A stretch of 54,551 nucleotides of DNA from a virus (lineage: Duplodnaviria; Caudoviricetes), in IMG/VR virus record IMGVR_UViG_3300012231_000002, positions 1-54,551 of that record. One strand, given 5' to 3'. This document shows positions 8,806-43,221 of this stretch, one piece after another. A model generated the notes under the pieces. It searched no databases, was not told the origin of the DNA, and saw nothing but the letters and a program-made list of their open reading frames with translations. The translations under genes and the position numbers were made by a program. The number at the start of each line of letters is the position of its first letter. The first letter of the stretch is position 1.

Positions 8806-9299
8806 TGAAACTCCTGAGGTCCGTGGGCCTTTCTGTCCTTCTTGCGGTGCTTTCTGTTACCGGTATTTCTGCGGATACTTTCCCTTGGCGTAGTGCGACT
8901 ACGAGCGACCGGGCTGAGGGCATTCTCCGTTCCCTGATCAAGACTGAACATGCCCGTGTCTGTGCTAATACCCTCTCCGGTGACGCTCGTCTGAAGTGGA
9001 TGGCGAGGTATCGTGCTACTGATATGGTGGTTCGCGGATACTTCTCTCATACCACGCCAGAGGGAAATAAGGTTTGGGACTTCATGCCCGCTGGCGGCAT
9101 TTCCTTCCAGTCTGCGGCAGAGATTCTCGCGTGGAACTCCTACCCTGATGACTATGCCGCTCGGGCCGCGTACAATCAGTTCATGGGATCGTCTGGTCAT
9201 CGCGCTGCCATTCAGTCGTGTGACTACACGCGCCTCGGCGTTGGCGATTACAAGGCTGGTTCCAAGAGGATGTTCGTAGTCTTGTTCACGAGGCCTTAA
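8805..9299 (+). CDS. Secreted CAP/SCP-domain protein
   Basis: Signal peptide; ARYRATDM...YFSH..P, AEILAWN, FMGSSGHRAAI, GVG. Confidence 0.85.
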   Translation: MKLLRSVGLSVLLAVLSVTGISADTFPWRSATTSDRAEGILRSLIKTEHARVCANTLSGDARLKWMARYRATDMVVRGYFSHTTPEGNKVWDFMPAGGISFQSAAEILAWNSYPDDYAARAAYNQFMGSSGHRAAIQSCDYTRLGVGDYKAGSKRMFVVLFTRP

Positions 9300-13430: not shown

Positions 13431-13688
13431 ATGGCCGTTCTTAATGCAAGCGAGCCCCTTGGGCTTCCGCCCGGAAGTGTCAGGGCTCTGATTGCTCTCG
13501 GCTTCTCCGGCGTCACCATGTATCTGTTCGCGACGAACCAGCCGATTGACCCCGGTTATCTCGCGATCACGACCCTGATTGTCGGCAACTATTTCGGTAC
13601 TCGTGGTGCCGAGAATGTCGAGGGTCATACTACCATCGAGGTTCTCGCGCCGCCCGCCACTGGCGATTCGGTCGAGGACCCGGCTTAA
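13431..13688 (+). CDS. Small two-TM membrane protein (holin candidate)
   Basis: PLGLPPGSVRALIAL...IVGNYFGTR; RBS AGGAG. Confidence 0.6.
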   Translation: MAVLNASEPLGLPPGSVRALIALGFSGVTMYLFATNQPIDPGYLAITTLIVGNYFGTRGAENVEGHTTIEVLAPPATGDSVEDPA

Positions 13689-14455
13689 TGTCCAAGTGGA
13701 CGGAGGCCGAACTTGCCGCTCTTGACTCCGTTGCAAATGACAACGGCATGTCGGCGTACCATGCTTGGGCAGCCCTCTCGGGTTATACCAAGTCGTTCGA
13801 TGCCTTCGAGGTAAAACGTCGTCGGGTGCTACAGGGTGGTACCCATCGTCCGGTTGCCGCAGCAGCCACCACGTTCGGAGTAGCCGCCGATGCGCCTGAG
13901 ACCCTCGTCACACAGGAAGAGATGGCGAATTTCGTCGGCTTCTCTATGGCTTTCTGGGACCTCGAAACGACGTTCTCGACCCAGCCCCTCGTTCTTCTCG
14001 GGTGTATCGCCGACCAGTTCGGTAATGTCACCGAGTTCAGGAAGGGAAAGGACATCACCGACGACAAGGCGCTTGTCAAAGCGATCCGTGATGCCCTCGT
14101 CAAGTACGACATCTGGGTGACATGGAATGGCATCCTGTTCGATGTTCCCGTCCTCAATGGGCGGTTGATCTTCCACGGGCTGGAACCGCTCCCGCCCACC
14201 ATGCATATCGACGCCATGTACAAGGCCACCGGTGGTAGCGTCCGCATTGGACGCCGCTCTCTAGACTCGGTGTCAAAGTATTTCGATGTCGATAACAAGA
14301 AGACCCCGCTCAACGTCAGAACGTGGGACAAGGCCATGTCTGGTGATGCCGATGCCTACGAACTGATCGCTGAGCATTGTCATGCTGATGTTCTTGTCAC
14401 AAGAGATGTGTTCAATGTTCTGAAGCCACAGGTTCGGCGCGTCGAAAGGAAGTAG
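13688..14455 (+). CDS. RNase H-like 3'-5' exonuclease (DEDD/YprB-like)
   Basis: FWDLET, VTWNG..FDVPVL, HIDAMY, HC.ADV. Confidence 0.85.
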   Translation: MSKWTEAELAALDSVANDNGMSAYHAWAALSGYTKSFDAFEVKRRRVLQGGTHRPVAAAATTFGVAADAPETLVTQEEMANFVGFSMAFWDLETTFSTQPLVLLGCIADQFGNVTEFRKGKDITDDKALVKAIRDALVKYDIWVTWNGILFDVPVLNGRLIFHGLEPLPPTMHIDAMYKATGGSVRIGRRSLDSVSKYFDVDNKKTPLNVRTWDKAMSGDADAYELIAEHCHADVLVTRDVFNVLKPQVRRVERK

Positions 14456-15302: not shown

Positions 15303-16136
15303 ATGAAGCTCTTTGAGAAGCCCCTGCGGCTCCCGCTGGGATTTGTCCTTGGCCGCGACCCGCATGGCTCGGCTACTCTTATGTCGGGCATGATGTTCGA
15401 CACTCACTTGCGCGCTACACATATGCGCAATGGCGTGATCATCGGTGAGCACGACTTGGGCTCCGGCCTCGTCACCAACATCGGCGTCTTGGCCTTGGCT
15501 GGTGACAGCCAGTGGCCGCAGACTTCCATCGTCACCAACCTGTTCAAGCTCCTTCAGTACCATGCCTCGGGTAAGGGTGTCACTGCTGCGGCGTTTACTG
15601 ATATCCAGATCGAGACTGACTCCACCGTTGGTGGGCAGACCCCGGTGGCTGGTACTCAGGTCTTCACTCACGATCAGTCGGCTACGGCTCAGAAGTGGGT
15701 CTCTGTTGCCACGATCGCGTACACGGGTACTGAGGCTGTTACCGAGTGGGGCCTGTTCAATGGTTCTACGCTCTCGCGGACGACCGGTACTCCGTTCACT
15801 GCCACGACTGCCAATACTGGCACGGTTACTGGTACTCCTCTGACCGCATCCAGTACTTCGGTCCGTGGTGAGACGCAGTTCGTGGTAAAGACGACTACTA
15901 CCCCGCGTTACGCCCTGATCACTAGCAACTCCACTTCGGTCCTGACTCTCTCCTTCTCGGCTGCGTCGGGTTGGATGGTTACCTCGACCGGTGTCATCGG
16001 CAGCACTCCGGGTTCGTCTGAGGCGTTCACTCTTCGTCCGGTGATGTGGGACCACAAGGTCTTCTCGGCCATCAACGTCCTGAACGGCGACAGCATCCAG
16101 TTCACGTACACGCTGACCATCGCTTCGGGGGGTTGA
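15303..16136 (+). CDS. Virion structural protein
   Basis: AVTEWGLFN...MWDHKVFSAINV.NGDSIQFTYTLTI, a fibre/baseplate-type motif. Confidence 0.7.
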   Translation: MKLFEKPLRLPLGFVLGRDPHGSATLMSGMMFDTHLRATHMRNGVIIGEHDLGSGLVTNIGVLALAGDSQWPQTSIVTNLFKLLQYHASGKGVTAAAFTDIQIETDSTVGGQTPVAGTQVFTHDQSATAQKWVSVATIAYTGTEAVTEWGLFNGSTLSRTTGTPFTATTANTGTVTGTPLTASSTSVRGETQFVVKTTTTPRYALITSNSTSVLTLSFSAASGWMVTSTGVIGSTPGSSEAFTLRPVMWDHKVFSAINVLNGDSIQFTYTLTIASGG

Positions 16137-16181
16137 GTAATGGGCGCTCTTGCCGGGTTCAAGGTGCCCCGGTGTTGAGCA

Positions 16182-16454
16182 GTGGCACCTGAAGCCGTTA
16201 CCTTCCCGCATCGTCGGTTCGTCCTAACTCAAACCGTTGGTGGGGTCGAGACAAACGTCATCCAATCGACCCCGTTACCTCCGAACTACAGCACGGATCG
16301 GACCGAACGCCAAGAGGCGATGGACTCGGCGTGGGCGGCGAAGAACCTCGATCCTGCCATTCTCTATAAGCTGTACGGTCCTACCAACGGCGGCGCGCAC
16401 ACCGATGATGACCTGATCTGGCGGTCTGATATTGACTACGGCGACGGCAACTAA
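16182..16454 (+). CDS. Hypothetical protein
   Basis: Stop abuts the next start. Confidence 0.55.
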   Translation: MAPEAVTFPHRRFVLTQTVGGVETNVIQSTPLPPNYSTDRTERQEAMDSAWAAKNLDPAILYKLYGPTNGGAHTDDDLIWRSDIDYGDGN

Positions 16455-18968
16455 GTGTCTGCTCCCCTGTATGTCGCCGCATCGACCGGCGCAACTGACG
16501 CTACTGGTGCGTGGACGGCTACATGTCACGCCCCCGGCGCTGCTGGCCGCATCATCATCCTTCAGGTTCTGCAAGACGGTACGGGTACTCCTGCGACAGC
16601 CGACTCTGTTACGAACGCAGAGAACCTTGCCGGGACTGACAATGTTCTGACTCTCGTTGGGTCGTTTAATGTTGGATCGGCGACTGCGGCCCGACAGTTG
16701 ATCTACATTGGCCGAACGCTATCCACTTCGGCTCCGGTCGTTACCGGGTCCAACTCGGCTGGCGATGATCTGTACTGGCGGTTCTACGAGTTCAAGGACG
16801 TTTCGACCGGCACGACGCTCGCAACGGTTATCGAGAATGCGACGGCGGGCTCAACTGTCAATGAGGTCGGGACTTCTGCAACGGCGTCAGACGCGAGCGT
16901 CCAGTCACTCGGCTCTGATCGACTTGCCCTGAACTTCATCGCCGTCAACGACGACAATGCTATTGCCACCTTGGCCGGTATGACTGGCGGCACATGGATG
17001 ACACCCATCTCCCACTACGCCGACTCGGCCGGTACGGACGGAGCTATCGGCATTCAGACCGCCTATCCCGGCCCATCCATCCCTAACGAGGTCGGGGCGA
17101 GTCTCGTCAACTTCGGCACTACCTCCAATCCAGAGCGGGCGCAGTCGTTCAAGGCTCTCGGCGACGCGACGAAGGTCCGGGTACACGTCAGCAAGAGCGG
17201 CGGTCCCGAAGATAATCTGGAAGTCACCATCCAGAGCGACAGCAGCGGGTCGCCATCTGGTACGGTGCTTGGCACAGCCACCTTGGCGGGATCGGACCTG
17301 ACGACTACCGGGACGTGGTATGACCTGACGTTGAGCGCCGACCTGACGGACGGGACGACCTATTGGCTCGTGTTCGGACGGGACGGCGCGAACGACAACA
17401 TCAACTATTACCGCACGTATAGCGTTGCTTCGTCGGTTCGCTACGCAGACGGCAATGCGGCGGTCTTTACCAGTTCGTGGTCCAACCTGAGCACCGAAGA
17501 TATCGTGTTTACGGTCTACCCGAATCACACGACCGTTGATGGCGGCACGGCCAGCGTCACCGCCTCGGATGCTTGGGGAGTCCTTGGCTTCGCTTTGATC
17601 GGAACCACGGCTGATGGCACGACCTACGATCAGGCATTGACTGGTTCTTTGTCGTTCGCTGGTGCTTTTGTGAAGCGGGATAAGAAAGCCTTGACCGCCA
17701 CATTGACTCCGGCAGGCGCACTGAGGCGCGATACTTTCCACAGGATGACTGCGACTCTGACGCCTGCGGGAGCGTTGACCAAGAAAACTTTTCGGTCTTT
17801 GGCCGGTGTTCTGTCATTCTCTGGTGCCCTTGCTGCCTCTCGGTTGATCTTGAAGGCGCTGACCGGGACCCTCTCGTTCTCTGGCTCGCTTAGTAGACGG
17901 ACTGGCAAGTCTTTGGCTGGCACGTTGTCGTTCGCTGGCGAGCAGTCTAAGAGGACCGCCCACACCATGACCGCCACGCTCACGCCCTCTGGTTCTCTGG
18001 TGAAGCGGACTAGCCGCGCGTTGGCTGGTGCTCTCTCGTTCATTGGTGCCCTGTCTGTCTCTCGCCTTATCAACGTGGCGCTGTCTGCCACGCTGTCGTT
18101 CTCTGGTGGGCTAACCAAGCGGACTGGTAAGGCTACTGCTGGTACGTTGTCGTTCGCTGGCTCGTTGGCCAAGCGAACCAGTAGGGCGTTGGCTGGTGGC
18201 CTGTCGTTCTCTGGGTCTTTGGTGAAGCGTACTAATCGTGGGCTGGCTGGTGGTCTCTCTTTCGTTGGGTCTCTGGCGAGGCGGACTGGCAAGGCCACCA
18301 GCGGCACGCTGTCCTTTTCTGGGTCTGTTGCCAAGCGGACTAGCAGGGCGCTTGCTGGTGCTCTGTCTTGGGTCGGTGGACTCGCGACCAATCTCATCCC
18401 CGGTGGTGGCGGGCCACAGACCTATTTTCAGGAGTTGACTGCCACGCTGTCGTTCACTGGTAATCTCAATCGTCGGATGTTCCGGCAGTTGTCCGGTGGT
18501 CTGTCGTTCATTGGCACCCTGACAAAACGGAATTTTAGATCATTTACTGCTACGTTGTCGTTCGTTGGTGCGTTTAGAAAGACTGCCAGAAAGAATCTGA
18601 CTGCCACGCTGTCGTTTACTGGGGCTATCTCTAGGCGTACCTTCCACATGATGACTGCCACGTTGTCGTTCGTTGGTAGTCTGCCTCGGCGGACGGTCCA
18701 TGGCATGACCGCAACGCTGTCGTTCTCGGGGTCCCTGACCAAGAACACTGCTCGGACGCTGGCTGGTGTCTTGTCCTTTGTCGGCAACCACGCAATGTTG
18801 CAGGGCCACTTCTACACGCAAGCGTTCACCGCCACGTTGTCGTTCTCGGGGTCCTTGGCTCGTAGTTTCCTGACGCTGGTCTTTGGTGGTGATGCGTTGA
18901 CTCGTATGAAGTCGAATGTCTCTCGGTTCCCGTGGTATGCTAGGGGTAACAGGCGAGGTCGTCGGTAG
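16455..18968 (+). CDS. Fibre-like virion protein with ~22 basic 18-aa repeats
   Basis: Thr/Ser/Gly-rich beta domains, then repeats of L/M-T-A-T-L-S-F-x-G-x-L-x-K/R-R-T-x-R/K-x. Confidence 0.75.
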   Translation: MSAPLYVAASTGATDATGAWTATCHAPGAAGRIIILQVLQDGTGTPATADSVTNAENLAGTDNVLTLVGSFNVGSATAARQLIYIGRTLSTSAPVVTGSNSAGDDLYWRFYEFKDVSTGTTLATVIENATAGSTVNEVGTSATASDASVQSLGSDRLALNFIAVNDDNAIATLAGMTGGTWMTPISHYADSAGTDGAIGIQTAYPGPSIPNEVGASLVNFGTTSNPERAQSFKALGDATKVRVHVSKSGGPEDNLEVTIQSDSSGSPSGTVLGTATLAGSDLTTTGTWYDLTLSADLTDGTTYWLVFGRDGANDNINYYRTYSVASSVRYADGNAAVFTSSWSNLSTEDIVFTVYPNHTTVDGGTASVTASDAWGVLGFALIGTTADGTTYDQALTGSLSFAGAFVKRDKKALTATLTPAGALRRDTFHRMTATLTPAGALTKKTFRSLAGVLSFSGALAASRLILKALTGTLSFSGSLSRRTGKSLAGTLSFAGEQSKRTAHTMTATLTPSGSLVKRTSRALAGALSFIGALSVSRLINVALSATLSFSGGLTKRTGKATAGTLSFAGSLAKRTSRALAGGLSFSGSLVKRTNRGLAGGLSFVGSLARRTGKATSGTLSFSGSVAKRTSRALAGALSWVGGLATNLIPGGGGPQTYFQELTATLSFTGNLNRRMFRQLSGGLSFIGTLTKRNFRSFTATLSFVGAFRKTARKNLTATLSFTGAISRRTFHMMTATLSFVGSLPRRTVHGMTATLSFSGSLTKNTARTLAGVLSFVGNHAMLQGHFYTQAFTATLSFSGSLARSFLTLVFGGDALTRMKSNVSRFPWYARGNRRGRR

Positions 18969-19116: not shown

Positions 19117-19323
19117 CTAGCATGAGGATGTTGACCCGCATAGGATACAGGTCCAGCAAGCGCCGGTTCTCTGCGTGGGTCCATTATCCCAGATACAGGG
19201 CGGTCCGCCACCGGGCATTCGTGGGGGACTGTAGGTAATCTCTGGCATCTTCGGCGGTGGTTCATCCACAGCAGGATTCGCCGGACTTGCCTCCGCAGGA
19301 GCAGTTGTGCTGGGGTTGAACAT
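19117..19323 (-). CDS. Small Cys-rich protein resembling the class II RNR (NrdJ) C-terminal tail
   Basis: PPC..D....QRTGACWTCILCGSTSSC at the C-terminus; RBS GGAG. Confidence 0.6.
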   Translation of the reverse strand: MFNPSTTAPAEASPANPAVDEPPPKMPEITYSPPRMPGGGPPCIWDNGPTQRTGACWTCILCGSTSSC

Positions 19324-19771
19324 ATCGGGTCTCCGATGTAGGGATGTAAAGTTCTAGTATACGCTGATGGTCGGGTCCAACCCAGCCCTCTGGCTTCAGT
19401 TGTTTCCCGTCTGCGCGCTTTGGGCCATCCAGCTTTCGCATGTTGGCCCGGTGAACCTCATCGAAGTGACGTTGAAGGTCAATGTCTGCATTGACGGCCC
19501 CTCCGGCGACGACATAGGTCAGGTCGCAGAGGCCGTCGATGTATTCGAGTAGGTTCATTTTGGGCCAGTACTTGCGGAAGAGCGTGTCGTGGTTGTGGTC
19601 GGTGTTGTCGTAGACCCCAGCGGATACGTCGAAACCGAGTGCCGCTACGGTCTCGACAGCCTCTTCCATGATGAGGCGGGCGCGGAGGCGCTGTCCGTCA
19701 CGGGTGTAGATCGTTCCACGTCCGCCTGTCTTCTCGTGGAAGTCTGCTACGGCCTCTTGGAATGGGTTCAT
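19262..19771 (-). CDS. MazG-like / PRA-PH nucleoside triphosphate pyrophosphohydrolase
   Basis: V.DFH, RARLIMEEAVE, DGLCDLTYV, EVHRANMRK..G.KRADGK.LKPEGW..PD; start at MNPFQE with RBS GGAG. Confidence 0.88.
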   Translation of the reverse strand: MNPFQEAVADFHEKTGGRGTIYTRDGQRLRARLIMEEAVETVAALGFDVSAGVYDNTDHNHDTLFRKYWPKMNLLEYIDGLCDLTYVVAGGAVNADIDLQRHFDEVHRANMRKLDGPKRADGKQLKPEGWVGPDHQRILELYIPTSETRYVQPQHNCSCGGKSGESCCG

Positions 19772-19779
19772 GTCATCTC

Positions 19780-19926
19780 CTAGTAGTAGTCCGAGCAGGA
19801 CAGGAAGTATCCGCACTCGCAGATGAGTTTGCACTTCATCTCTGTCAGGGTATTACCACAGTTGGGACAGGTCAGGATCAGTTCTTCTGGTTCATCGTGT
19901 GAGTTCTCGGTATCGTTTGATTCCAT
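19780..19926 (-). CDS. 48-aa zinc-finger microprotein (CPNCG...[18 protein letters not shown])
   Basis: Read directly; below the ORF-track cutoff; CPxCG-type pattern. Confidence 0.75.
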
Positions 19927-20438: not shown

Positions 20439-20855
20439 TTAGTCATAGTAGTGGGCCTTCCTGTTTACGGGTACCAGCGGTTTGGGTGCGGCCTCCACGT
20501 TGGGGGCTTCAATCTCTTCGATGATGGCTTGGGCGTAGGCGATGAGGTTGTTGAGGGCGATGGGATCGTTTTCCCACTGTCCGAGGTACTTGTTGCAGAG
20601 GTAGCAGAGGAGGGCTCCCCGTACGCGATTGGAGAGATGGGAGTGATCAACGGCTAGTCTCCTAGTGACGGCTCGGCGCATACAGATAGCGCAGCGTCCG
20701 TCTTGTGCGTCCAGCATGGCTTTGTACTGTCCGGGTTCAAGTCCGTATGTCTTGACAACATACCTGTCGTGAACCCGATCTGCCTTCTCTTTTGCTAGGG
20801 CCTTCGCCGCAGCCTTAGAGGCTCTGGATGTAGGCGATGGCCTTGGACTTGACAT
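20439..20855 (-). CDS. Recombination endonuclease VII-family protein
   Basis: YGL....Y.AML.AQDGRCAIC...LAVDHSH...VRG.LLC..CN. Confidence 0.9.
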   Translation of the reverse strand: MSSPRPSPTSRASKAAAKALAKEKADRVHDRYVVKTYGLEPGQYKAMLDAQDGRCAICMRRAVTRRLAVDHSHLSNRVRGALLCYLCNKYLGQWENDPIALNNLIAYAQAIIEEIEAPNVEAAPKPLVPVNRKAHYYD

Positions 20856-26991: not shown

Positions 26992-27174
26992 CTACTGGGA
27001 TGGTAGGGGTTTCGCTCGTGCGAGAATGTCGTGTAGACGATCTGAGTCGTCGTAGGTGATGTACTTGGTCTCGATTCGGTAAACCTCGTTTGAGATTTTC
27101 CGAGCGAGTAATTTGAGGAAGATCAGTTCTTCTTCGGTGAGTCGAACGCCTTCGATCTGGTGAAGACTGTTCAC
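26992..27174 (-). CDS. MxxLHxI-motif protein (MNSLHQIEG..., 60 aa)
   Basis: GTG overlaps the ThiF stop (GTGA). Confidence 0.7.
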   Translation of the reverse strand: MNSLHQIEGVRLTEEELIFLKLLARKISNEVYRIETKYITYDDSDRLHDILARAKPLPSQ

Positions 27175-27884
27175 TTCACCCAGCCTTCCCATGTCCTCAT
27201 ATCGACATGGTTCACCTGACCCTTGGCTAGATCGAACTGAAGTTCGGTCCAGCCGGGGTTTCGCCACTCTCCGGTGTGGAAGCGCCACAACGCAGCAAGC
27301 ATCCAAGCGGCTGCTTGCTGATTGGCGAGGATCAGTTGTCCGCCACCGGGGAGTGCTGCTGCCTGCGCACATGTCATGGCGGCGCGGTCGTCCTTGGAGA
27401 TAAATCGGATTTCGGGGTGCATGAACGTGATCGGGGGTGTGGCGTTCTGCCCGTTTTCGCGAACGTAGAGTTGGACGTTGCCGTCTGACAACTCGTTGCC
27501 TGCGTTGATGACGACCACGTTGGGCAGCTCGGCAGCGCGTTCGGCCACCAGCGCGCGGACGGAGTGGTTGTCCGCAGCGATGAAGACAGTATCGCCTTCC
27601 TGCATCATCTCGGCGAGGTCCACCTTACCGATGAACTTTGGGACCGCGATGACCGGGAAGCGGTTGTACATCCTCGCCATGGCCTCGGCCTTGTTGGCGG
27701 TCACGTAACCCGGTTCGAAGAGTTGGCGTTCGAGGTTGCCGATGTCGTAGTTGTCACCGTCTACGATGGCGAACTGCCACTCTTCGTTGTCCCTGTTCCG
27801 GTGATGGGTTTCGAGGTAGGCCAGTGCTGGGGCAATGAAGTGGCTTCCGGTGCCACCAGCGCCGATGAGAATGTATGAGTTCAT
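27171..27884 (-). CDS. ThiF/E1-like ubiquitin-activating enzyme
   Basis: IGAGGTGS, IVDGD...NLERQ, NKAEAMA, AADN, INAGN, candidate catalytic Cys in AMTCAQ. Confidence 0.92.
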   Translation of the reverse strand: MNSYILIGAGGTGSHFIAPALAYLETHHRNRDNEEWQFAIVDGDNYDIGNLERQLFEPGYVTANKAEAMARMYNRFPVIAVPKFIGKVDLAEMMQEGDTVFIAADNHSVRALVAERAAELPNVVVINAGNELSDGNVQLYVRENGQNATPPITFMHPEIRFISKDDRAAMTCAQAAALPGGGQLILANQQAAAWMLAALWRFHTGEWRNPGWTELQFDLAKGQVNHVDMRTWEGWVK

Positions 27885-28396
27885 TGGGGTCCTCTATCGT
27901 AGTCGCAGTTTTCACACCATTGACCGTCGTCTTGGTATTCGCCGTCGCCGTTTACCCAAACGTGACCGTCTTGTTCGCATCGGTCGCGACGGGTGACTAC
28001 CTTGATAGCGTCAAGGTCTAGTGGTGGAAGCGCGGTGACGTTTTCGGTTGATCGGCGGGCGATATCTACGAGATATTCTTCTCCACCGGTCCACCACTCG
28101 CTGTCGAGCCAGTTTTCGCCTTCGGTGTTTCGTCGGGTGAATTCCATCTGTTCGCGGTAGTACTGGGTGGCCTGTGTTGGCGTCATCCATGTACCTTCGC
28201 GGTGGTAGTCATCATCCTCTCGGGGGTGGATGATGTATCGCTGGTGGGTGATCTGCTCCTCCCACAACCCGAGTGGATAGCCATTCTCGGTCCAGCGGTC
28301 CAGAAGGGTGCCACGACCGTCTCTGATCAGGTCTTCTGTGATATACGGGAGTCCGTCATATCGTAGAGTGCCCTTGATTTCGTGGAGCCCTTTCAT
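27881..28396 (-). CDS. MxxLHxI-motif protein (MKGLHEIKG...), C-terminal C...GH.W...CENC
   Basis: RBS AAGGAG; ATGA overlap with ThiF. Confidence 0.75.
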   Translation of the reverse strand: MKGLHEIKGTLRYDGLPYITEDLIRDGRGTLLDRWTENGYPLGLWEEQITHQRYIIHPREDDDYHREGTWMTPTQATQYYREQMEFTRRNTEGENWLDSEWWTGGEEYLVDIARRSTENVTALPPLDLDAIKVVTRRDRCEQDGHVWVNGDGEYQDDGQWCENCDYDRGPQ

Positions 28397-28404
28397 ATTT
28401 CTCC

Positions 28405-28686
28405 TTACTTCGTGACGAAATGGACCTCCGACATTCGCTTTTGGGCGATTTCGGCGTACTTGTCGCGAAGGTTTTGTGTGTCTCGGTAGCGTGGCTGAAT
28501 ACGGGCCCAGCCGGGTCGCTGCCAGTATTGAAGGTCGGTGTTTCGGTAGAATTCGGGAATGATGTAGCCGCGCTTGGGCGTGGTTCGAACGCGGACTTCG
28601 TGGCCCTCGTTCAGCATTCGACCAATAGAGGCTAAGTCGATAGAGGATAGTTGTGGCACGCTGATGATGCCGTGCAGGGGCTTCAT
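28405..28686 (-). CDS. MxxLHxI-motif protein (MKPLHGI..., 93 aa)
   Basis: ATGA overlap with the upstream gene. Confidence 0.7.
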   Translation of the reverse strand: MKPLHGIISVPQLSSIDLASIGRMLNEGHEVRVRTTPKRGYIIPEFYRNTDLQYWQRPGWARIQPRYRDTQNLRDKYAEIAQKRMSEVHFVTK

Positions 28687-28886
28687 CCGTTCTTGCCGTA
28701 TCGTTCGATGTAGGTTTCCATTTGATTTCTGGCGTCCTCCATCGTCTGATACGCCCTCCATGTTATGTCTTTTTCTGTGCGCTTGTATTCGAGATGTCCT
28801 TTGTTGTCTCGGAACTCGTATCCGGCGTTTTTCGTGGTGAACCATTCCAAGACATTGGAATTGTCGATGGCGTGTAGCGTGATCAT
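28683..28886 (-). CDS. MxxLHxI-motif protein (MITLHAID..., 67 aa)
   Basis: ATGA overlap with the upstream gene. Confidence 0.7.
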   Translation of the reverse strand: MITLHAIDNSNVLEWFTTKNAGYEFRDNKGHLEYKRTEKDITWRAYQTMEDARNQMETYIERYGKNG

Positions 28887-29083
28887 CGGATTGTGTATCC
28901 GGTCCGCTGAATCCATCCCATCCAGTATTCGACACTGGAACCACTTCGCCACTCGCCTAGGAGTGGGAGTTCCCAGACGATTCCATTTCGGATTTCGAAC
29001 TTGTAGCGGTTTTTGAAGTGTGCGTTGATGATTTCGAGAAGGGCCTCTTCCCTTGTGCCTTTGATGTCGTGGAGCGCGTGCAT
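28883..29083 (-). CDS. MxxLHxI-motif protein (MHALHDIKG..., 66 aa)
   Basis: TGATG overlap; RBS GGAGG. Confidence 0.72.
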   Translation of the reverse strand: MHALHDIKGTREEALLEIINAHFKNRYKFEIRNGIVWELPLLGEWRSGSSVEYWMGWIQRTGYTIR

Positions 29084-29391
29084 CAGGACAGATACCTCCG
29101 AAAACCGTCCAAGCCACAGGAGCATTGGGTTTCGAGTTTTACGCAGTCTCGTTTGTGTTGGAGTCGTCCGTCCCAGAAGTCTCCAAGAGTACGAAGTGCT
29201 TCGAACAAGTCCTCGCGTGACGGAGTAGGTCGATCGCCTTGGGGCGTACTGTCCCGGTTGGGTGCCATGGGACTTGGTACTCGTTCAGGCACGTTAGACA
29301 AAGACTGGTCGTCTCCACCGTTATTGTCGGGTCGAGGGACCCGCAGAGGGCGCAAGCGAGGTTCTTTGTCAGGTGCCATTGGTGGTTCCAA
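29083..29391 (-). CDS. Hypothetical protein (H...C...CSCGL); start uncertain
   Basis: Stop overlaps the next ATG. Confidence 0.4.
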   Translation of the reverse strand: MEPPMAPDKEPRLRPLRVPRPDNNGGDDQSLSNVPERVPSPMAPNRDSTPQGDRPTPSREDLFEALRTLGDFWDGRLQHKRDCVKLETQCSCGLDGFRRYLS

Positions 29392-29535
29392 ACTCCGTCG
29401 TTCCAGACTCGAAACCTTTGAGCAAGTGCTCGGTAGGTCTCTTGATAGAAGCCCCGTTTTTCAAGGGCCTCTATCTGAGCGATGTGGGGGAGACAGTGAT
29501 CCCGGTGCGTGTCTGCGTGCTTCGGGGAGAAGTCG

Positions 29536-29946
29536 TTACAGCGATGTACCGGGGTCCGAGTCTCGGATTCCGACCAGTTCACGGTCGAGGTCGGCCGCGT
29601 GCTGTGCGATTCGGTGAGCAAGGTCTCGGAGATTGGTCGTGCGCGCTTCGGGCGTCCACTTCCCGTACTCCGCGATGGCTTCGGTGATGCCTTTCGCGAT
29701 GAGGTCGGACTTGGCGTGGGTGGCTGTGCTGACGGCTTCGGTCTTGGCTCGGGCATCCCAGTGCTTCCTTGCTTCGTCCAGTTCGCCAAGCGCCTCCTTG
29801 TCCGTGACCTTGACATCATCGTCGTTGATGCAGGCCACGAGGAAGAGGATGTGCTGGCTCGCCCGGAACATTGGCGGGAAGAATCCGCTGCCTGTGGGCG
29901 TCCGCCCCGTAAAGGGCAGTTCCTTGATGGTGTCGGCGAATGCCAT
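29536..29946 (-). CDS. Hypothetical protein
   Basis: RBS AAGGG; phage-like codon use. Confidence 0.65.
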   Translation of the reverse strand: MAFADTIKELPFTGRTPTGSGFFPPMFRASQHILFLVACINDDDVKVTDKEALGELDEARKHWDARAKTEAVSTATHAKSDLIAKGITEAIAEYGKWTPEARTTNLRDLAHRIAQHAADLDRELVGIRDSDPGTSL

Positions 29947-29947
29947 G

Positions 29948-30253
29948 CTACTTGTCCCTTTCTGTGGGGAATTCGGGAAGATCGTACTCTTCCCTGATCT
30001 GGGTGATGCCCTTGGCTGCGAGTTCTTCTAGGTGTTCCTTCTCGGCCTTGTCCACCATGTCCTTGATTCCGAGCAGGAATAGAAGCTTCTCTTTCTGCTT
30101 CTTCTTGTGTTCTTTCTTGTTGAGGTATTCGATAATGGTGGCGGTCACGTAAAACGTGAACACGACCGCCACGCCGATCCATCCGGCCATGGAATATGAC
30201 CCGAGGAAGGCGATGATCCAGATGGCTATTCCGATCATGGCGACTGCTAGCAT
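29948..30253 (-). CDS. Two-TM membrane protein
   Basis: Two hydrophobic helices and a charged tail; TAATG overlap with the JAB gene. Confidence 0.7.
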   Translation of the reverse strand: MLAVAMIGIAIWIIAFLGSYSMAGWIGVAVVFTFYVTATIIEYLNKKEHKKKQKEKLLFLLGIKDMVDKAEKEHLEELAAKGITQIREEYDLPEFPTERDK

Positions 30254-31842
30254 TAGTTCAGCCCTTTCTGGCTCATGTCTTCGGGTGGTGTGGCGGTTTC
30301 TGGGAGCAGTGCCATGTCCAGATCGCCGGGGATTGACCCGGTGACCTTGAATGAGACATTGAGGCCCAGCGTCCTGAGGACGTGGATTGATCGGAGTGTC
30401 TTGGACAGGAAGGCTTCTTGCCAGTACTCGGGGTCTCCGGCGATGTCTGGGTGGCGAAGGGCGAAGTCGATGTCGTCCTCGTTCACCTGATCGCTGTCGA
30501 ACAGGAGTTCTAGGACATCGGGCGGAAGGAGTTCCTCCCAGTGCTTGTCCTCTGATTCTGACCAGAGGCCCATTTCTCGAAGCTCGGCTTCGGAGAAGGA
30601 CTTTTCGAGAGCGCCTTCCTTGTCCCAGTCCACGCCACGTTCGGCCGCTCGCCGTGCGTTGAACTGTCGGGATTCCACCAGTGCCATGGGCTCGGTGTTA
30701 CCGACGAACTCCCAGTTCTTGATGCGAGGAGCCCAGCGGTAGCCCTTCTCGACTAGGAGTCGTGGTGAGATTCCCTCGTAACCTTCAGGTGGGCCATCAA
30801 GTCCCTGAAGCCGATAGAATTCGTCCCAGTCTTCGGCCCGATATCCAATCGGTTCGTTGGCAGGACGAGAGAGTGGTGCGTCGAAAGCCTGAGCCCGAAT
30901 GGTAGTGCCATTTTGACCGGGAAACGTGATGGTGCCGTCTTCGGCTACCACCCAGCTCTTGTGGACGAGGCGATGAAGCCTCTGGTTCCACACCCAGTCC
31001 TGCGTGAGATTGGAGCGTCCGACCGGATGCTGTCCCTGTCCCTGTGGCTGGGTAACTGGGGTGATCTTGGTGGTTGCGAATTCGTTGCCCACACCGGTCG
31101 GCTTGTTGAACTTCTTGTATAGTTCGTAGCCAACTGGCTTGGTCCGGGTCTTGGTGTCTTCGACGTAGCGATCCCACCACGCGGGGGCTTGGTGCTTCTT
31201 GACCTCGGAGAAGTCGAAGAGAAGCGGGAACTGGGACTCCTGATAGTGGATTAGTCGCTTGTTCATGGCGACCATGGCCACGATCTGCGGGGTTTCCCTC
31301 TTGATCATCCCGATGGTGGCGTGGAATCCGTCGAATCCCTCTGCATCCTTGGTGTCCGTGCCGCTGTGGCCTGCACCGAAGTCGCAGTGAGAGTGGATCG
31401 TTCCAACGAGGACCCAAGGCAGGGCGATGTGGGTCGGATCGAAGACGTAGTTGACTCCACCATGGGAGACTAGCTGCGTTGGGATGAACGCGCGCCATTC
31501 CTTGGTGTCTTGGTTCATGCAGAGCAGGACCATGGCTTCCGTGTGCTGGTAGTCATAGATTCGCTCGAAGAACGTCACGACATGGGACATGATCACGGCG
31601 GGGATCGGCGGGGCTTCCCACCAGAACATGCCCGTGGAGGTCCCGACCTTTGGGAAGAACTCGGGCCATGTTTCGACTCGTGCGATGCCGCGACCTAGAA
31701 GGCCGCGTCGATGCAGGAACAGTCCGTCCTTGGCTCCGAAGTAGAACGGATCGGGACCGTCTGGAACGCCATCCCAGCCGTCTTGTCCCAACTTCAGGAG
31801 AGCGCCGAACGCCGGGGGCGGGGGCGGCTTTCGCTTGGTCAT
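30253..31842 (-). CDS. JAB/JAMM (Mov34/MPN) metalloprotease with long C-terminal extension (PRTRC protein A-like)
   Basis: TEAMVLL...VGTIHSHCDFGAGHSGTDTKD = E...HxH-x7-S-x2-D; start MTKRKPP with ATGA overlap. Confidence 0.9.
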   Translation of the reverse strand: MTKRKPPPPPAFGALLKLGQDGWDGVPDGPDPFYFGAKDGLFLHRRGLLGRGIARVETWPEFFPKVGTSTGMFWWEAPPIPAVIMSHVVTFFERIYDYQHTEAMVLLCMNQDTKEWRAFIPTQLVSHGGVNYVFDPTHIALPWVLVGTIHSHCDFGAGHSGTDTKDAEGFDGFHATIGMIKRETPQIVAMVAMNKRLIHYQESQFPLLFDFSEVKKHQAPAWWDRYVEDTKTRTKPVGYELYKKFNKPTGVGNEFATTKITPVTQPQGQGQHPVGRSNLTQDWVWNQRLHRLVHKSWVVAEDGTITFPGQNGTTIRAQAFDAPLSRPANEPIGYRAEDWDEFYRLQGLDGPPEGYEGISPRLLVEKGYRWAPRIKNWEFVGNTEPMALVESRQFNARRAAERGVDWDKEGALEKSFSEAELREMGLWSESEDKHWEELLPPDVLELLFDSDQVNEDDIDFALRHPDIAGDPEYWQEAFLSKTLRSIHVLRTLGLNVSFKVTGSIPGDLDMALLPETATPPEDMSQKGLN

Positions 31843-32222
31843 CTCGCTACTCCCTCGTCCATCGGACGGATCGTTGTCGTTCCGATCGTGATAGTCGTTG
31901 CCTGCTCGTGCAATTCCTCGATCGTGGGCTTGGGTGTTGCCTTGACCTTGAACCTTGCCTTTTCCTTGCCGGTCTTCAGGTTTTGATTGAGTTTTGCCAG
32001 TCTTGGGCTTTTTGCTGTGACCAGATCGCTGTCCAGTGTCATCATGCGATCGGTGATCTTGGACATCGTTGCGTCGATTGCCGTTTTGAAGTAGATCGAG
32101 ATGGACTCGTCTGGGTTCGTCGGAAGACTCCCCGCGCCCGTCGCGATGACGTTGTGTTCCATCTGGTCCACGATGGCGAGTAGATCGGCGATTGTTTCTG
32201 GGCGCTTGTCGTCGGTGGCCAT
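31839..32222 (-). CDS. Hypothetical protein within the Ubl operon
   Basis: Between the E2 and JAB genes, translationally coupled. Confidence 0.7.
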   Translation of the reverse strand: MATDDKRPETIADLLAIVDQMEHNVIATGAGSLPTNPDESISIYFKTAIDATMSKITDRMMTLDSDLVTAKSPRLAKLNQNLKTGKEKARFKVKATPKPTIEELHEQATTITIGTTTIRPMDEGVAR

Positions 32223-32224
32223 GT

Positions 32225-33094
32225 CTAGGCAACCTTCTTACCGCTGTCTGCGCGGATGTTGGCGAGACCGACCTCGATCCGCTCCCTCTCTTCGGGAGTC
32301 AGTTTCATCAGCCACTCTTCGGTGCGTCCGAAGGTCATGGGCGTGATGATTTCGGGGATGCGACCAATGACCTCGATGGGAGCGCTTCGGTCGCTAAGCG
32401 TGCCCATGATCTTGCGAACTGTGGTGTAGGTCAGTCCGGGGACCTTCTTGCCCTTGGCGTGATCCCATTCGGGGAAGGATAGGAAGGCGGCGGGGTCCTT
32501 CTTGGACTCCTCTTCCCAGCGTGCCCAAGTGTCACGGCCGGTCTCGCTCATCCACGGGCTGCCTGCGCCGGAGCCGTGCGTGAATGTGGTGCGGTAGAAC
32601 TCGTCAATGGTCTGGTCGATCCTCTGGGCCAGTGAGAGGTTCTGGTGGGTGCTGGTCGTACCCCAGCAGATGTTCCCGCTGGCCGCCACGTTGGGCACCA
32701 TCGCGGTCATCAGTTCTTGGTCGAGGTTTGTGATGTTCTCGCGTGACCAGTACATCCGAGTGTTGACGTGGACCCAGTTCCGACCCTCCATCGGGTCTCC
32801 TGAGGTCTGAAGGTCAAACAGGAAGTACGTCCATGGCAGCGAAATCTGGTATCGCCGATCGTTGTACTTGCATGTGAACATGCCAGCGGTGTGCTCGGCG
32901 AGAATCTGCGCCTTGGCTTGCTTGGCGTCGCTCTGGTCCCAGTGAACGATGATCGCGCTCTTGGGCAAGATGCCAACGGTCACTGGTGGGCGGTTCTCGA
33001 TGTACGGGAGGAAGTCCTGAAGTCGGCCCTCGGTGATGACTTCGACTCGCTGGTGTCGAACGAGGTCACCTTCGATGAGCAGTTGATCGGGCAT
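32225..33094 (-). CDS. Prokaryotic E2-like conjugating enzyme (PRTRC protein B / Prok-E2 type)
   Basis: LPWTYFLF...AMVPNVAASGNICWG...FYRTTFTH; catalytic-type Cys in NV..G.ICWG; RBS AGGAG. Confidence 0.8.
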   Translation of the reverse strand: MPDQLLIEGDLVRHQRVEVITEGRLQDFLPYIENRPPVTVGILPKSAIIVHWDQSDAKQAKAQILAEHTAGMFTCKYNDRRYQISLPWTYFLFDLQTSGDPMEGRNWVHVNTRMYWSRENITNLDQELMTAMVPNVAASGNICWGTTSTHQNLSLAQRIDQTIDEFYRTTFTHGSGAGSPWMSETGRDTWARWEEESKKDPAAFLSFPEWDHAKGKKVPGLTYTTVRKIMGTLSDRSAPIEVIGRIPEIITPMTFGRTEEWLMKLTPEERERIEVGLANIRADSGKKVA

Positions 33095-33112
33095 GATGTT
33101 GCTCCTGAAACG

Positions 33113-33143
33113 AAAAAGGGGAGACCCTTGCGGACCTCCCCTT
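33113..33143 (-). terminator. Intrinsic terminator between the Ubl and E2 genes
   Basis: Minus strand GGGGAGGUCC-GCAA-GGGUCUCCCC-UUUUU. Confidence 0.8.
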
Positions 33144-33175
33144 CATGTCGGCTGACAGGTTGTCTGAGTTAGGTC

Positions 33176-33394
33176 TCAGACGCCCTTGTTGCCAGCGGCC
33201 TTCGTCGCCTGCACGCGATCGCCGTCAGCGAGGCGCGTGGTCGGACCGGCAGCAGCGCCGTTGACCGCGACTGCGGCATCGGCGGCGATGCCGAGGGGGC
33301 CAGCGACCTCGCGGAAGAGGTCGGCGACCGTCTCGACGGTCTCGTTCTCGATGGTGAACGTGCCACTGGGCGTGGTCACGGTGAGCTTCGGCAT
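33176..33394 (-). CDS. Ubiquitin-like (beta-grasp, ThiS/MoaD-like) protein ending ...AGNKG-V
   Basis: TVADL, AVAVNG, TRLADGDRV; strong RBS AAGGAGG. Confidence 0.88.
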   Translation of the reverse strand: MPKLTVTTPSGTFTIENETVETVADLFREVAGPLGIAADAAVAVNGAAAGPTTRLADGDRVQATKAAGNKGV

Positions 33395-33585: not shown

Positions 33586-34011
33586 TCAGTCCGGTAGTGG
33601 GACTTGTTTGTCTATGCAGATGGTGACAACTGCTTCGACCCATTCGGAGAGTTGATCTTGTTCGATTATGACGACATCGGTTCTGGTCTCGATGTCGGGA
33701 TACTTGGTTTTTAGGTTCTGTAGAAGTTGGGGGGAAGGGTAAATCAGGGTGTGATTGGCGCGTTCGATCACCCCACCTGAAGTGAGGAGTTCGATGCTAC
33801 CTTTCTCGAATTCTACCCCTTCCTTTAGCTGGGTCGCCGCTCCTTTCGAACCTGTGGTGACGAGGATGTGGCCGAGCCTCGCGATGCACCTTCCGATGAA
33901 ATTGAGCGAGACTGCTTCTTCTTCGGTGATAGTGGCTTTTCCGATGAATCCGATTCGGGGGTTTCGAAGAGTTCGGGTTGACTTCTTAGTCCGGGTGTCA
34001 ACTCGGTCCAT
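33586..34011 (-). CDS. SLOG/LOG-like Rossmannoid protein
   Basis: RIGFIG...FIGRCIARLGHILVTTGSKGA. Confidence 0.55.
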   Translation of the reverse strand: MDRVDTRTKKSTRTLRNPRIGFIGKATITEEEAVSLNFIGRCIARLGHILVTTGSKGAATQLKEGVEFEKGSIELLTSGGVIERANHTLIYPSPQLLQNLKTKYPDIETRTDVVIIEQDQLSEWVEAVVTICIDKQVPLPD

Positions 34012-35407: not shown

Positions 35408-36232
35408 CTAGTACCGTGTATTGTCGAAATTCACGGTGTCGTTGGTTGTGACTTGGGTTGTGACGTGGTGGTGGGACTCACTGTCGAGGTTCGGACTCTT
35501 GTAGAAGTCGTAACTTGACAGTGCTGCGGCCGAATCGTCGGTTGTCACGCTTGATGCGGTGAGTCCGTCTCGGCGATAGAGAGCGCCGCCATCATTGTTC
35601 CGACTGTAGTACATGTCGGTCATGTTGATGTCGGCGTTGTCGTGATCGTTGCCGATGCTGCTGTAGATTTCACCGGTTTCGGCTCCCCACCACGCGAGAG
35701 CGCCGTACCAACGGTTGGGCTGGTACTTATTGAACTCGGTGTACTGGCCGTTGCTGGTGTCTGTGATGCGATATCGAACGTTGCCAGCACCACTTGGGAG
35801 TTCCGTGAGTGCGATCGTGTACTTGTACTTGGTGCCGAGTGTTGGGACCCAACTACCCGGAATGTTGATCGCGTTCGGGCTATCGAAAGCGTAAACGAAC
35901 TTCCTGCCATCGCTGCTTTCGGAGTATCCGAGTTGGTAAATGCCGCTTCCGCCACTGACGCTGTTCTGAAGATTGGCGGGAAGAATGTAGGAGCCGTGTG
36001 CTCCGGTCCCGGTGCAATCATCGAGGTCGCGTGTCGTGGCGCTTCCTTCGATCCTGTCGAACTGTGCATCACCACCGGGTCCATCGTGATATTCACGGAG
36101 GACGATCAGATGGTCGTTCTGTGCGCCGGGGAGAACGCAGACGGGTTCGGCGCTGACTCCGGGTGCGGAGAACGCGAGGATGGTGCCGACGAGTGCGACG
36201 ATCGCGCTCAGTCGTGCGAACTTGTTCTTCAT
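35408..36232 (-). CDS. Secreted protein, possible neprosin/G1 glutamic-peptidase-like fold
   Basis: Signal peptide MKNKFARL...VSA; IYQLGY and WWGAET motifs. Confidence 0.55.
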   Translation of the reverse strand: MKNKFARLSAIVALVGTILAFSAPGVSAEPVCVLPGAQNDHLIVLREYHDGPGGDAQFDRIEGSATTRDLDDCTGTGAHGSYILPANLQNSVSGGSGIYQLGYSESSDGRKFVYAFDSPNAINIPGSWVPTLGTKYKYTIALTELPSGAGNVRYRITDTSNGQYTEFNKYQPNRWYGALAWWGAETGEIYSSIGNDHDNADINMTDMYYSRNNDGGALYRRDGLTASSVTTDDSAAALSSYDFYKSPNLDSESHHHVTTQVTTNDTVNFDNTRY

Positions 36233-36243
36233 TGGGGGTCCTT

Positions 36244-36702
36244 TCAGTCGGCTGTGATGATCAGGGATGACAGGGCGTCGTTGATGGTCAGATCGAGTCG
36301 ATATGCGGTCCATGGACCGTCTACTCTCTCGCTGTAGCAGTTGTAGCTTGCGCAGTTGTAGAGAGAGATTTCGTAGAACGTGGATGGGAGCCAGACTTTG
36401 ATGCTGGACACGCAGTCATTCCAAGTGCTTCTTCCTCCCACGAGTGACGCGCAGTCACCGGGCAGTGAGTGGCTGTATCCCGCGAGGTCTGCGATTTTCC
36501 ACTGACTTCCGATCAGTGTCTTGTTGCACACGATCCAAAAGCTGTCGTTGTTGTCTCCGGTATCGCCCTTCTTGTTTTCGTAGAACCGGATCGACGCGCC
36601 AGTTGTCGGTGTGCATGAGCCCTGTGTTCCGGCGCTGACTGCGGGTGCGAAAGTCAGCATCATTGCCATTGAGGCAAGAATGACCAGAAGCTTCTTCTTC
36701 AC
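36244..36702 (-). CDS. Secreted beta/gamma-crystallin / peptidase-inhibitor I36-like protein
   Basis: Signal peptide ...PAVSA; WNDCVSSIKV, LY...SY, INDALSSL. Confidence 0.65.
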   Translation of the reverse strand: MKKKLLVILASMAMMLTFAPAVSAGTQGSCTPTTGASIRFYENKKGDTGDNNDSFWIVCNKTLIGSQWKIADLAGYSHSLPGDCASLVGGRSTWNDCVSSIKVWLPSTFYEISLYNCASYNCYSERVDGPWTAYRLDLTINDALSSLIITAD

Positions 36703-36959
36703 GGGTTCCCTTTCTGTCCCCCGGATTTGATGCTGACAGGAAGTTCCTCGGGTCCTATCAGCTATAATGCCCGTTGTCCCGAGTCCGTGCGGCTCTGTCA
36801 TATGACAGGGAGTGGTACGCCACCGGTGACGGTTCTAGCCCCGTGGAGCCGATGCGTCCTTGGGTGCTCTTGCGAGGGCACCGAGTAGGGTTCTAGTTGT
36901 CCTCATCCGATGTCGTACCCGACTCGTATGAAAGAACCCTACTCTATGACCTCGAAAGA

Positions 36960-40105: not shown

Positions 40106-40585
40106 TCATACGAACGCTCCTGTGCGGATGTTGAAGACTGGCTTACCTTCCTTTAGCGCGTACTGGATGCAGTTCCATGTGCCGCCGTGCGTCTTGCCTG
40201 TCCAATAGGTCCATACCTCATCTGCGCGATCGACCATGGCGATGTTGCGTTCCTGATAGCGCTGAATCTCGTAGTAGTCTGCGCCGATGACCGTGATTGA
40301 CTCGGCGTGTTCGAGATGTCGGCGTAGCGTAGCCCTGCTTGATTCGGGCCAGAACTTCGTCATGGCGCGTGTCGTGAATGGCAGGATGATGTGGTATGGG
40401 ATGTTGTGGACGAAAGCCCATTCGGTAGCGTAGGTGTCAATGCCTAGCGCGCCGCCCGTGACGAAGATCAAGTCTCGGTATGGTGAGGCTGTCTCGTCAC
40501 GGTTGTTCATCAGGTCTGCGAATGCCCGATAGTCGAGGCTGCCCAAGTCCTTCGGCCGATGTCCTGTCCAAGCGATAGTTCGCAT
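40106..40585 (-). CDS. SLOG-family protein (YspA/DUF1273-like)
   Basis: IAWTGHRP, VTGGALGID, ILPF, YQERNIAMVDRAD, GGTWNCIQYA. Confidence 0.9.
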   Translation of the reverse strand: MRTIAWTGHRPKDLGSLDYRAFADLMNNRDETASPYRDLIFVTGGALGIDTYATEWAFVHNIPYHIILPFTTRAMTKFWPESSRATLRRHLEHAESITVIGADYYEIQRYQERNIAMVDRADEVWTYWTGKTHGGTWNCIQYALKEGKPVFNIRTGAFV

Positions 40586-42960: not shown

Positions 42961-43221
42961 ATGAAGCAGCTTCACGAACTGAACGCACCGCCCGCCGAGG
43001 GAACTCTTCTCTCGTGGTATGGGACTACTACTGCTGCGACCTTCGATTGGACTCCGGCTGCTTATCAGAGGCAGTACTTCGAGCAGATGTACGTGGGTCG
43101 TCCCGAACCGCAGCGTGATCAGATGGAACGTCTTCAGCGCGAGATGCAGCAGCTTCGTCGCGAAGTAGATATGTACCGTGAATACGCCTATCGAGCCGCT
43201 CGACTGACCGAGCCGAAATAG
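42961..43221 (+). CDS. MxxLHxL-motif protein (MKQLHELN...), C-terminal coiled coil
   Basis: Start just after the -10 element. Confidence 0.7.
   Translation: MKQLHELNAPPAEGTLLSWYGTTTAATFDWTPAAYQRQYFEQMYVGRPEPQRDQMERLQREMQQLRREVDMYREYAYRAARLTEPK

Follow-up and report, generated by a model that had tools for sequence, protein, structure and literature searches.

Gene content of the locus

The window analysed here is the whole of IMG/VR record IMGVR_UViG_3300012231_000002, 54,551 bases bounded by direct terminal repeats, and represents a complete virus with a GC content of 55–59%. Terminase, portal and major capsid genes are found on its plus strand, and its minus-strand arm carries amidase, primase and exonuclease genes together with a cassette encoding a ubiquitin-like protein (Ubl), an E2-like protein, a JAB/JAMM zinc peptidase (JAB) and an E1-like adenylyltransferase (Table 1). 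Six consecutive small and dissimilar genes around the E1 gene, four before it and two after it, begin with M-x-x-L-H-x-I, the L-H-x-I occupying residues 4–7 (hereafter the tag). A conserved four-helix protein is encoded between JAB and E1.

An initial annotation of this DNA had placed the four core genes on the minus strand, and the positions of the open reading frames (ORFs) bear this out. The single gene run it described holds for the strand but not for contiguity: E2 and JAB are separated by an ORF of 127 amino acids, and JAB and E1 by 2.37 kb holding seven more ORFs. The system it called complete does have all four components, but what most distinguishes the locus, namely the four-helix protein and the genes with the Leu-His-x-Ile tag, escaped the description.

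At least half of the window's sequence words recur in each of three public DNA runs, sampled from freshwater sediment and groundwater, one of them possibly being the source; no RNA run was among the listed runs sharing words with the window. Contigs from three other DNA runs cover the cassette region (30 of 30 bins in run X2 and 28 of 30 in each of X3 and X4) and are mostly 95–100% identical to it, so the region is not an assembly artefact. The 3′ end of the Ubl gene is covered by contigs of X3 and X4.

Table 1. Core genes, tagged genes and other features of the cassette region, with positions in the window
Feature	Position	Strand	Remarks
Ubl, 72 aa	33176..33394	-	Pfam ThiS 23.1 bits (cut-off 22.5)
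E2-like protein, Prok-E2_D / PRTRC-B-like, Cys143 and His173	32225..33094	-	Prok-E2_D E 8e-5, PRTRC_B E 6e-5, both below cut-offs
JAB/JAMM zinc peptidase, N-terminal ~270 aa and long C-terminal extension	30253..31842	-	E102, H150-x-H152, S160, D163
E1-like ThiF-family adenylyltransferase, 237 aa, single domain	27171..27884	-	ThiF 54.5 bits, over cut-off
Tagged small protein, 66 aa	28883..29083	-	
Tagged small protein, 67 aa	28683..28886	-	
Tagged small protein, 93 aa	28405..28686	-	Tagged homologue in L055
Tagged protein, 171 aa	27881..28396	-	Tagged homologue in L055
Tagged small protein, 60 aa	26992..27174	-	
Tagged protein, 159 aa	26434..26913	-	Conserved family, located right behind E1 in relatives; L4 and H5 unchanged in 6/6 rows
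Candidate seventh tagged gene, M-x-x-L-H-x-L	42961..43221	+	Upstream of terminase; overlaps minus-strand ORF
Conserved four-helix-bundle protein, 136 aa	29536..29946	-	H32, E55, H62, D121, G126, C-terminal SDPG
Cys/His-rich ORF, probably zinc-binding	29139..29558	-	+1 frame behind four-helix gene
101-aa ORF, hydrophobic N-terminal half	29948..30253	-	No tblastn match in fetched loci
127-aa ORF	31839..32222	-	No family; no homologue in fetched loci; Atlas blank
Terminator-like hairpin, Ubl/E2 gap	33115..33144	-	13-pair stem and T run

Core genes

Sequence analysis confirmed that the four core genes are real and that their predicted catalytic residues are kept. The Ubl ends in G-N-K-G-V. Related Ubls end in G-[TNSQ]-K-G, and those of loci L005 and L120 and of the bacterial relatives stop at K-G; in the window, Val72 would first need to be removed for Gly71 to be exposed. 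The PRTRC_C model matched neither the window Ubl nor the rest of the genome, and its controls worked.

The E2-like protein carries the motif N-V-x-x-x-G-x-I-C-W-G. C143 and H173 are unchanged in nine of nine close homologues, and C143 is invariant in all 47 aligned rows, bacterial cassettes included. With an iterated profile built on this protein, E2s are recovered both from bacterial PRTRC-type loci and from cultured phages. In structure comparisons with VIA-align, 13 of the top 16 rows named an E2 enzyme or FANCL (Z 4.3–5.2), for example 1yrv_A (Z 4.8, rmsd 3.6, 119 residues aligned). The sequences of the PDB yielded nothing relevant to the protein, and tblastn against cultured phages gave no match. 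Scans of viral contigs with the single E1, with the E2 alignment and with a 523-aa gene were likewise without matches.

The JAMM motif of the JAB protein is intact, as had been reported in the initial annotation, and about 90 residues precede the catalytic region. Its profile matches (Prok-JAB, E 0.006; PRTRC_A, E 2e-4) are both below cut-off, and it is 33–43% identical to the JABs of L005, L054, L061 and L120. The C-terminal ~100 residues (30253–30600, minus strand), which follow a low-complexity linker, are separately conserved in L040 and L111.

For E1, 184 homologues were found. All 72 aligned rows share the GxGxxG motif, D44, R53, K65, D105, H156 and C172, the last being the only cysteine of the protein. 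Its best NCBIfam model is PRTRC_ThiF, and it is ThiF/MoeB-like. None of the four core genes matched PHROGs, and PADLOC returned only weak E1–E2 matches, for E1.

Given the ThiS score of the Ubl and the ThiF/MoeB-like score of the E1, the Ubl could be a sulfur carrier, adenylated by E1 for thiocarboxylation and delivering sulfur to DNA, tRNA or a cofactor, with the E2-like protein as a relay or relic. We consider this very improbable. The rhodanese model, which matched 13 of 14 control genomes, found nothing in the window genome, and no thiamine, molybdopterin, sulfur-relay or other sulfur-using enzyme appeared when 51 window ORFs were scanned against Pfam. The Ubl ends in K-G rather than G-G, the E1 with its one cysteine has no CxxC zinc sites, and the E2 cysteine is invariant across its 47 rows. 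ParB (PF02195), found in 10 of 14 control genomes, likewise has no match in the complete window genome, so that the initial annotation was right in listing neither ParB nor sulfur-transfer, thiamine or molybdopterin genes.

The N-terminal Leu-His-x-Ile tag

From the residue frequencies of the genome, 0.14–0.18 tag starts are expected per 80–100 genes, for a motif that was defined post hoc. In addition to the six tagged genes around E1, a candidate seventh lies upstream of the terminase gene; it is less certain because it overlaps a minus-strand ORF, and in relative G001 a tagged gene occupies the corresponding position with respect to TerL. In 27 close loci totalling 72 kb, from which the four near-duplicates L006, L049, L050 and L056 were excluded, we counted 39 tag starts on the coding strand, a few of them internal, and 2 on the opposite strand; they occur in 20 of the 27 loci. 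The corresponding numbers for 104 distant loci (1.33 Mb) are 26 and 17.

A hand-picked set of 44 tagged proteins, 7 of them from the window, was divided into 35 clusters by BLAST of the sequences stripped of the tag. The tagged bodies are 60–175 aa long, and some are Cys-rich or Trp-rich with no detectable similarity to the rest; others, such as the 159-aa family after E1, are clearly distinct. A profile built without the tag recovered just its own 14 rows. A Pfam scan at E<=0.05 that included 26 tagged proteins (7 from the window and 19 from relatives) showed no F-box, SOCS/BC-box or other known receptor domain in them, and the tagged proteins are not named by any Pfam family. In all but one of the 44 proteins the tag leucine is residue 3 or 4, and the residues between it and the initiator methionine differ in number and kind. 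All six leucine codons and both histidine codons are used to encode the tag, and this free variation argues that the motif is selected as a peptide. The DNA upstream of the 44 genes, judged by eye, has nothing in common.

Two other origins of the tag were considered and rejected: a DNA-level origin, as a repeat or cassette site, is ruled out by the free variation of the codons, and an ATCUN motif by the position of the histidine, at residue 4 or 5.

A docking element common to otherwise dissimilar proteins is the signature of modular receptors, and the tag has this form, its docking function being predicted.

The four-helix protein

The four-helix protein belongs to a large family (210 clusters at 50% identity) in which H32, E55, H62, D121 and G126 are kept in at least 90% of 150 rows, and its model is of high quality (pLDDT 97). 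The gene is present in 14 fetched loci, all of the E1 clade of the window. The size of the longest contig is the same for 10 close four-helix homologues and an E1 homologue, an indirect sign of co-occurrence. No Pfam family is common to the 150 members. There was no clear match among PDB sequences, where the best was a designed bundle, or in the Foldseek PDB and viral sets; the best VIA-align match (Z 11.3, rmsd 2.6, 105 aligned) is in the usual range for helical bundles, Atlas returned generic bundles only, and neither cultured phages nor the PRTRC models matched. The protein is a candidate scaffold, and a metal site formed by H32, E55, H62 and D121 is a guess. Complex prediction pairing the four-helix protein with the tagged protein of 67 aa (alignments A5 and A9) scored 0.00 in two runs, with controls not folded, and counts neither way.

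Relatives and distribution

The co-occurrence in related phages that the initial annotation proposed to survey is seen in L005 and L120, where the order Ubl-E2-JAB-four-helix gene-E1 is kept. L120 and L121, found in metagenome-assembled genome bins of unrelated taxa, are possibly misbinned. G001, a relative 96% complete, shares virion and replication genes with the window too. G003–G006 are 32–71% complete and lack the cassette region, G004 ending inside an E2 homologue. In a tree of 42 E1s, made by a quick method, the window and its relatives form a group separate from canonical PRTRC.

Unannotated cassettes of Ubl, E2, JAB and ThiF are also found in three cultured phages of 181–230 kb: Salmonella phage Arash (OQ632216), Vibrio phage D69 (OZ195729) and Bacillus phage WH1 (LC597490). 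Their E1s are just 25–29% identical to that of the window, and neither a four-helix homologue nor an array of tagged genes was found in these three phages. They carry one (Arash), three (D69) and five (WH1) Ubl repeats ending in G-T-K-G. The multiple repeats form poly-Ubl precursors, in WH1 gp211 (L001:775–1674) and in D69 (L002:2382–3173), that resemble eukaryotic polyubiquitin genes; gp211 bears the annotation "virion structural protein", a label whose basis was not seen. D148 and D181 matched as well. L064 has two E2-like genes about 8 kb apart (7915–8457 and 15913–16455).

Lysine content

Across 16 GC-rich loci, lysine makes up 1.4% of the tagged proteins (32 of 2351 residues), with 11 of 24 proteins having none. 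It makes up 4.2% of the other genes of the same loci (454 of 10891; p 5e-13 against the tagged proteins) and 3.1% of their other small ORFs (p 8e-5), in counts that ignore kinship and with a small-ORF control that contains some shadow frames. In the GC-rich loci the four-helix protein has 0.6% lysine and the E2 1.8%, and lysine is absent from 15 of 34 close four-helix homologues. Proteins held beside a charged E2 would gain from having few lysines, so a low content fits an adaptor role for the tagged proteins. VHL and SOCS1, substrate receptors of cullin-RING ligases, are described as having lysine deserts (PMC13696103).

Lysine content is the sole datum that discriminates an adaptor from a substrate. 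If the tagged proteins were substrates, the E2 would read the tag and join the Ubl to the alpha-amino group or a nearby residue, thereby stabilising, activating or delivering an anti-host panel that JAB would later release. N-terminal ubiquitylation is known from UBE2W. Conjugation of this kind requires no lysine and so fits lysine-poor bodies too, and the tag is fixed at the extreme N-terminus. We nevertheless think this unlikely: a co-encoded JAB would be expected to cut linear fusions at once unless regulated, and the residues between methionine and leucine vary in number and kind.

Proposed mechanism

The initial annotation proposed that the phage uses its own ubiquitylation-like machinery, and the residues, profiles and conservation support a predicted cysteine relay. 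First, JAB would clip Val72 and expose Gly71. In the bacterial anti-phage system Bil, BilC cuts between Gly97 and Ala98 and takes off the one residue that follows the reactive glycine (PMC10557695), so JAB is probably needed to mature the window Ubl. Second, Gly71 would be adenylated by E1 and linked to Cys172 of that enzyme as a thioester; third, the Ubl would be passed to Cys143 of the E2, with His173 helping. Fourth, the variable body of a tagged small protein would recognise the target, and the common tag would keep the bound target at the E2~Ubl, with the four-helix protein as candidate scaffold. Finally, the Ubl would be joined to a lysine of the target, a step that JAB could reverse.

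Steps one to three and the final step, the conjugation core, we regard as likely. The whole explanation, in which the tagged proteins act as interchangeable substrate receptors, is put forward tentatively and falls somewhat short of an even chance. A modular ligase in the full sense, in which a fixed core of E1, E2, JAB and Ubl with a four-helix scaffold serves fast-changing plug-in receptors docked by Leu-His-x-Ile, we consider doubtful.

The targets would most likely be host proteins that are disabled or redirected early in infection, since the cassette sits among replication genes. A different use of the cassette would be as a weapon against competing or superinfecting phages, or as a shield by which host Ubl tags on the phage's own virion proteins are stripped off or out-competed. 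Bil, which has the same four components in the same order, modifies phage structural proteins (PMC11601596), and the five-repeat Ubl precursor of WH1 bears the virion structural label mentioned above. Both uses are nonetheless improbable in our view: the genes lie in the replication arm beside exonuclease and primase rather than with the morphogenesis genes, the E1 is a single 237-aa domain and not of the Bil type, and a role in protecting a lysogen is without support because no integrase was found among the 51 scanned ORFs.

Several points weigh against the explanation with tagged receptors, beyond the choice of the motif after it was seen. Regarding the UBC fold whose lack would have undone the initial annotation, there are the weak UBC/RWD matches given above; the E2-like model is poor (pLDDT 61) and had no Foldseek match at E<=0.001, and Z scores of 4–5 may reflect merely a common arrangement. 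In the window itself lysine is not significantly depleted in the tagged proteins (3.4% against 4.7%, p 0.14), the four-helix protein has 5.9%, and there is no depletion in the AT-rich loci L040, L041, L111 and L120 nor in the GC-rich L042 and L055. A host Pup system (pupylation) or GC bias could also account for the low lysine (PMC13696103). Several tagged members of 65–95 aa may be remote paralogues, as many share a loose helix-strands-Trp pattern. Some tagged genes are far from the cassette (the gene at 42961, and others up to 5 kb downstream in L041). Seven of the 27 close loci have no tag, and L057 and L060 have the four-helix gene with no tagged gene within 2.5–2.8 kb, on short contigs. 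Finally, Bil functions without an E3 (PMC11601596).

The last of these points, the loose shared pattern, the remote tagged genes, the unremarkable lysine content of the window and the lack of the tag in distant cassettes, the three cultured phages included, would all suit a situation in which the E2 picks its targets directly, as in Bil. The tag would then have a separate reader, such as a host protease, chaperone or polymerase, or would mark an expanded, fast-evolving family merely gathered in the early region. We hold this to be unlikely, though of the alternatives it has the most in its favour. It does not readily account for the clusters of tagged genes that flank E1 on either side, seen in 20 of 27 close loci, for the presence of the tag on bodies of 60–175 aa, among them Cys-rich and Trp-rich ones with no detectable similarity to the rest, or for the joint lysine poverty of tagged and four-helix proteins in GC-rich relatives.

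L057 (763–1337) and L060 (397–636) belong to a sister group in which the tag is missing from the small genes that separate E1 from the four-helix gene. Some of these begin with G-D-R-V-x-V/L, a pattern reminiscent of SH3/KOW domains.

Other genes of the region and the genome

At the place of the 127-aa ORF, the maps of L005 and L120 show unrelated ORFs of 76–98 aa. The 101-aa ORF at the 3′ side of JAB is probably an insertion. Terminator-like sites in the region number 11 against 10.0 expected, so the hairpin between Ubl and E2 is singled out by its length and place only; it would allow an excess of Ubl over the enzymes.

The Cys/His-rich ORF is 29–50% identical in nine fetched loci, four of which have the same sequence, and is present in part of the clade. 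No ATG, GTG or TTG precedes its conserved part in four of five junctions (window, L005, L058, L062 and L065). At the Asp/Tyr-Pro-Gly codons the sequence is x-A-C, C-C-C, G-G-T in all five junctions, and different codons are found in four AT-rich loci that lack the ORF. Candidate explanations are a +1 frameshift fusion with the four-helix gene, a non-AUG start, or GC bias.

Upstream of the cassette, the Pfam scan found two SLOG-superfamily genes on the minus strand (33586–34011 and 40106–40585), of which the second is kept in G001, G004 and G006. Two genes with signal-peptide-like starts and cysteine-containing bodies (35408–36801, minus strand; 8805–9299, plus strand) and a CAP-domain gene apparently encode secreted proteins, which are unusual for a phage and a possible clue to the host. 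Two endonuclease VII-family genes (7548–7961, plus strand; 20439–20855, minus strand) are probably homing endonucleases. A MazG-like pyrophosphatase (19262–19834) and a PolB-type exonuclease (13688–14455) are also present.

Significance and relationship to known systems

Conjugation by E1 and E2 in prokaryotes has been demonstrated as an anti-phage weapon of bacteria (CBASS, Bil) and, biochemically, for Bub. We found no paper on a phage-owned Ubl conjugation set, on a phage-encoded cassette or tag of this kind, or on experiments with the PRTRC class, in a search that left most subscription journals and preprint supplements outside. One preprint mentions a gut-phage family of UBA5-like proteins (10.64898/2026.03.05.709809), and a survey of jumbo phages (PMC7824862) makes no mention of JAB, Ubl or ThiF. 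The window cassette is compact and complete and names every residue to mutate, and the related cassettes in cultured Salmonella, Vibrio and Bacillus phages permit in-vivo work. No E3-type adaptors are known in bacterial systems, and the tag offers a direct handle on target choice: should the small proteins prove to be receptors, every one of them would lead to a target in the host, and a programmable protein-tagging tool for bacteria could be made from the module.

The PRTRC class comprises NCBIfam models TIGR03735–TIGR03742 and is equated here, partly on our own reading, with operon type 6d of Iyer, Burroughs and Aravind 2006 (PMC1779556). The window resembles it in the order Ubl-E2-JAB-E1; in a stand-alone small Ubl with a terminal glycine, the K-G end being found in bacterial cassettes as well; in a Prok-E2_D-type E2 with a cysteine and downstream histidine, as described for 6d E2s (PMC1779556); in a stand-alone JAB with an intact metal motif; and in an E1 without a rhodanese domain. 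A JAB-N domain that keeps an Arg and a Trp is a further mark of the class. The best NCBIfam models are PRTRC_A, PRTRC_B and PRTRC_ThiF, but the scores are far below the cut-offs (21.2 against 101.8, 22.6 against 131.45 and 51.5 against 144.75, respectively). The window E1 falls in a separate clade, its gene is not adjacent to that of JAB, and the window adds the four-helix protein, the zinc-binding ORF and the tagged small genes, all on a complete tailed phage. PRTRC protein E (TIGR03741) has no match in the complete window genome (1 of 14 controls), and PRTRC F (TIGR03742), the conserved alpha-helical protein of the class, has none in the window, that model being silent also in the controls and in four further cassette genomes. 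The match to PRTRC families in the initial annotation thus stands as far as conserved residues, profile links to bacterial PRTRC-type E2s and retention of the cassette in related phages are concerned, but not by curated cut-offs. By its sequence, the window cassette is a divergent relative of the PRTRC/6d class rather than a member.

Bil (BilABCD) also has Ubl, E2, JAB and E1 in the same order, which the window keeps with insertions (PMC10557695, PMC11601596), and shares with the scheme predicted for the window a Ubl residue beyond the reactive glycine, trimmed by JAB, and a cysteine relay (PMC10557695). The comparison with Bil in the initial annotation is therefore apt for gene set and order but fails for the E1, as BilD is a three-part IAD-AAD-CYS enzyme and the window E1 a single ThiF domain. 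Bil is a bacterial defence against phages, joins its Ubl to phage structural proteins by isopeptide bonds and has no adaptor genes, whereas the window set is phage-encoded. In Bub (6E/DUF6527), a prokaryotic operon likewise combines E1, E2, JAB and Ubl processing; in the account given by PMC11601596, the Bub E1 and E2 lack the catalytic cysteine, form oxyesters and are fused, and BubE is present, whereas the window keeps its cysteines in separate genes. The ThiS/ThiF and MoaD/MoeB pairs differ from the window in the Gly-Gly end of the Ubl, against K-G-V here, and the window has one cysteine in E1 and neither rhodanese nor partner genes.

Substrate receptors of cullin-RING ligases carry F-box or BC-box docking elements. 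The likeness to the tagged proteins is one of logic only: a short common N-terminal docking element on variable small proteins, and lysine-poor receptors. There is no sequence or family match, neither cullin nor RING has been shown, and the window motif is four residues rather than a folded box. If the modular ligase is real, it would be a prokaryotic-virus parallel of cullin-RING ligases and their F-box proteins, by which each phage would tag a set of targets of its own, whether defence or housekeeping proteins of the host.

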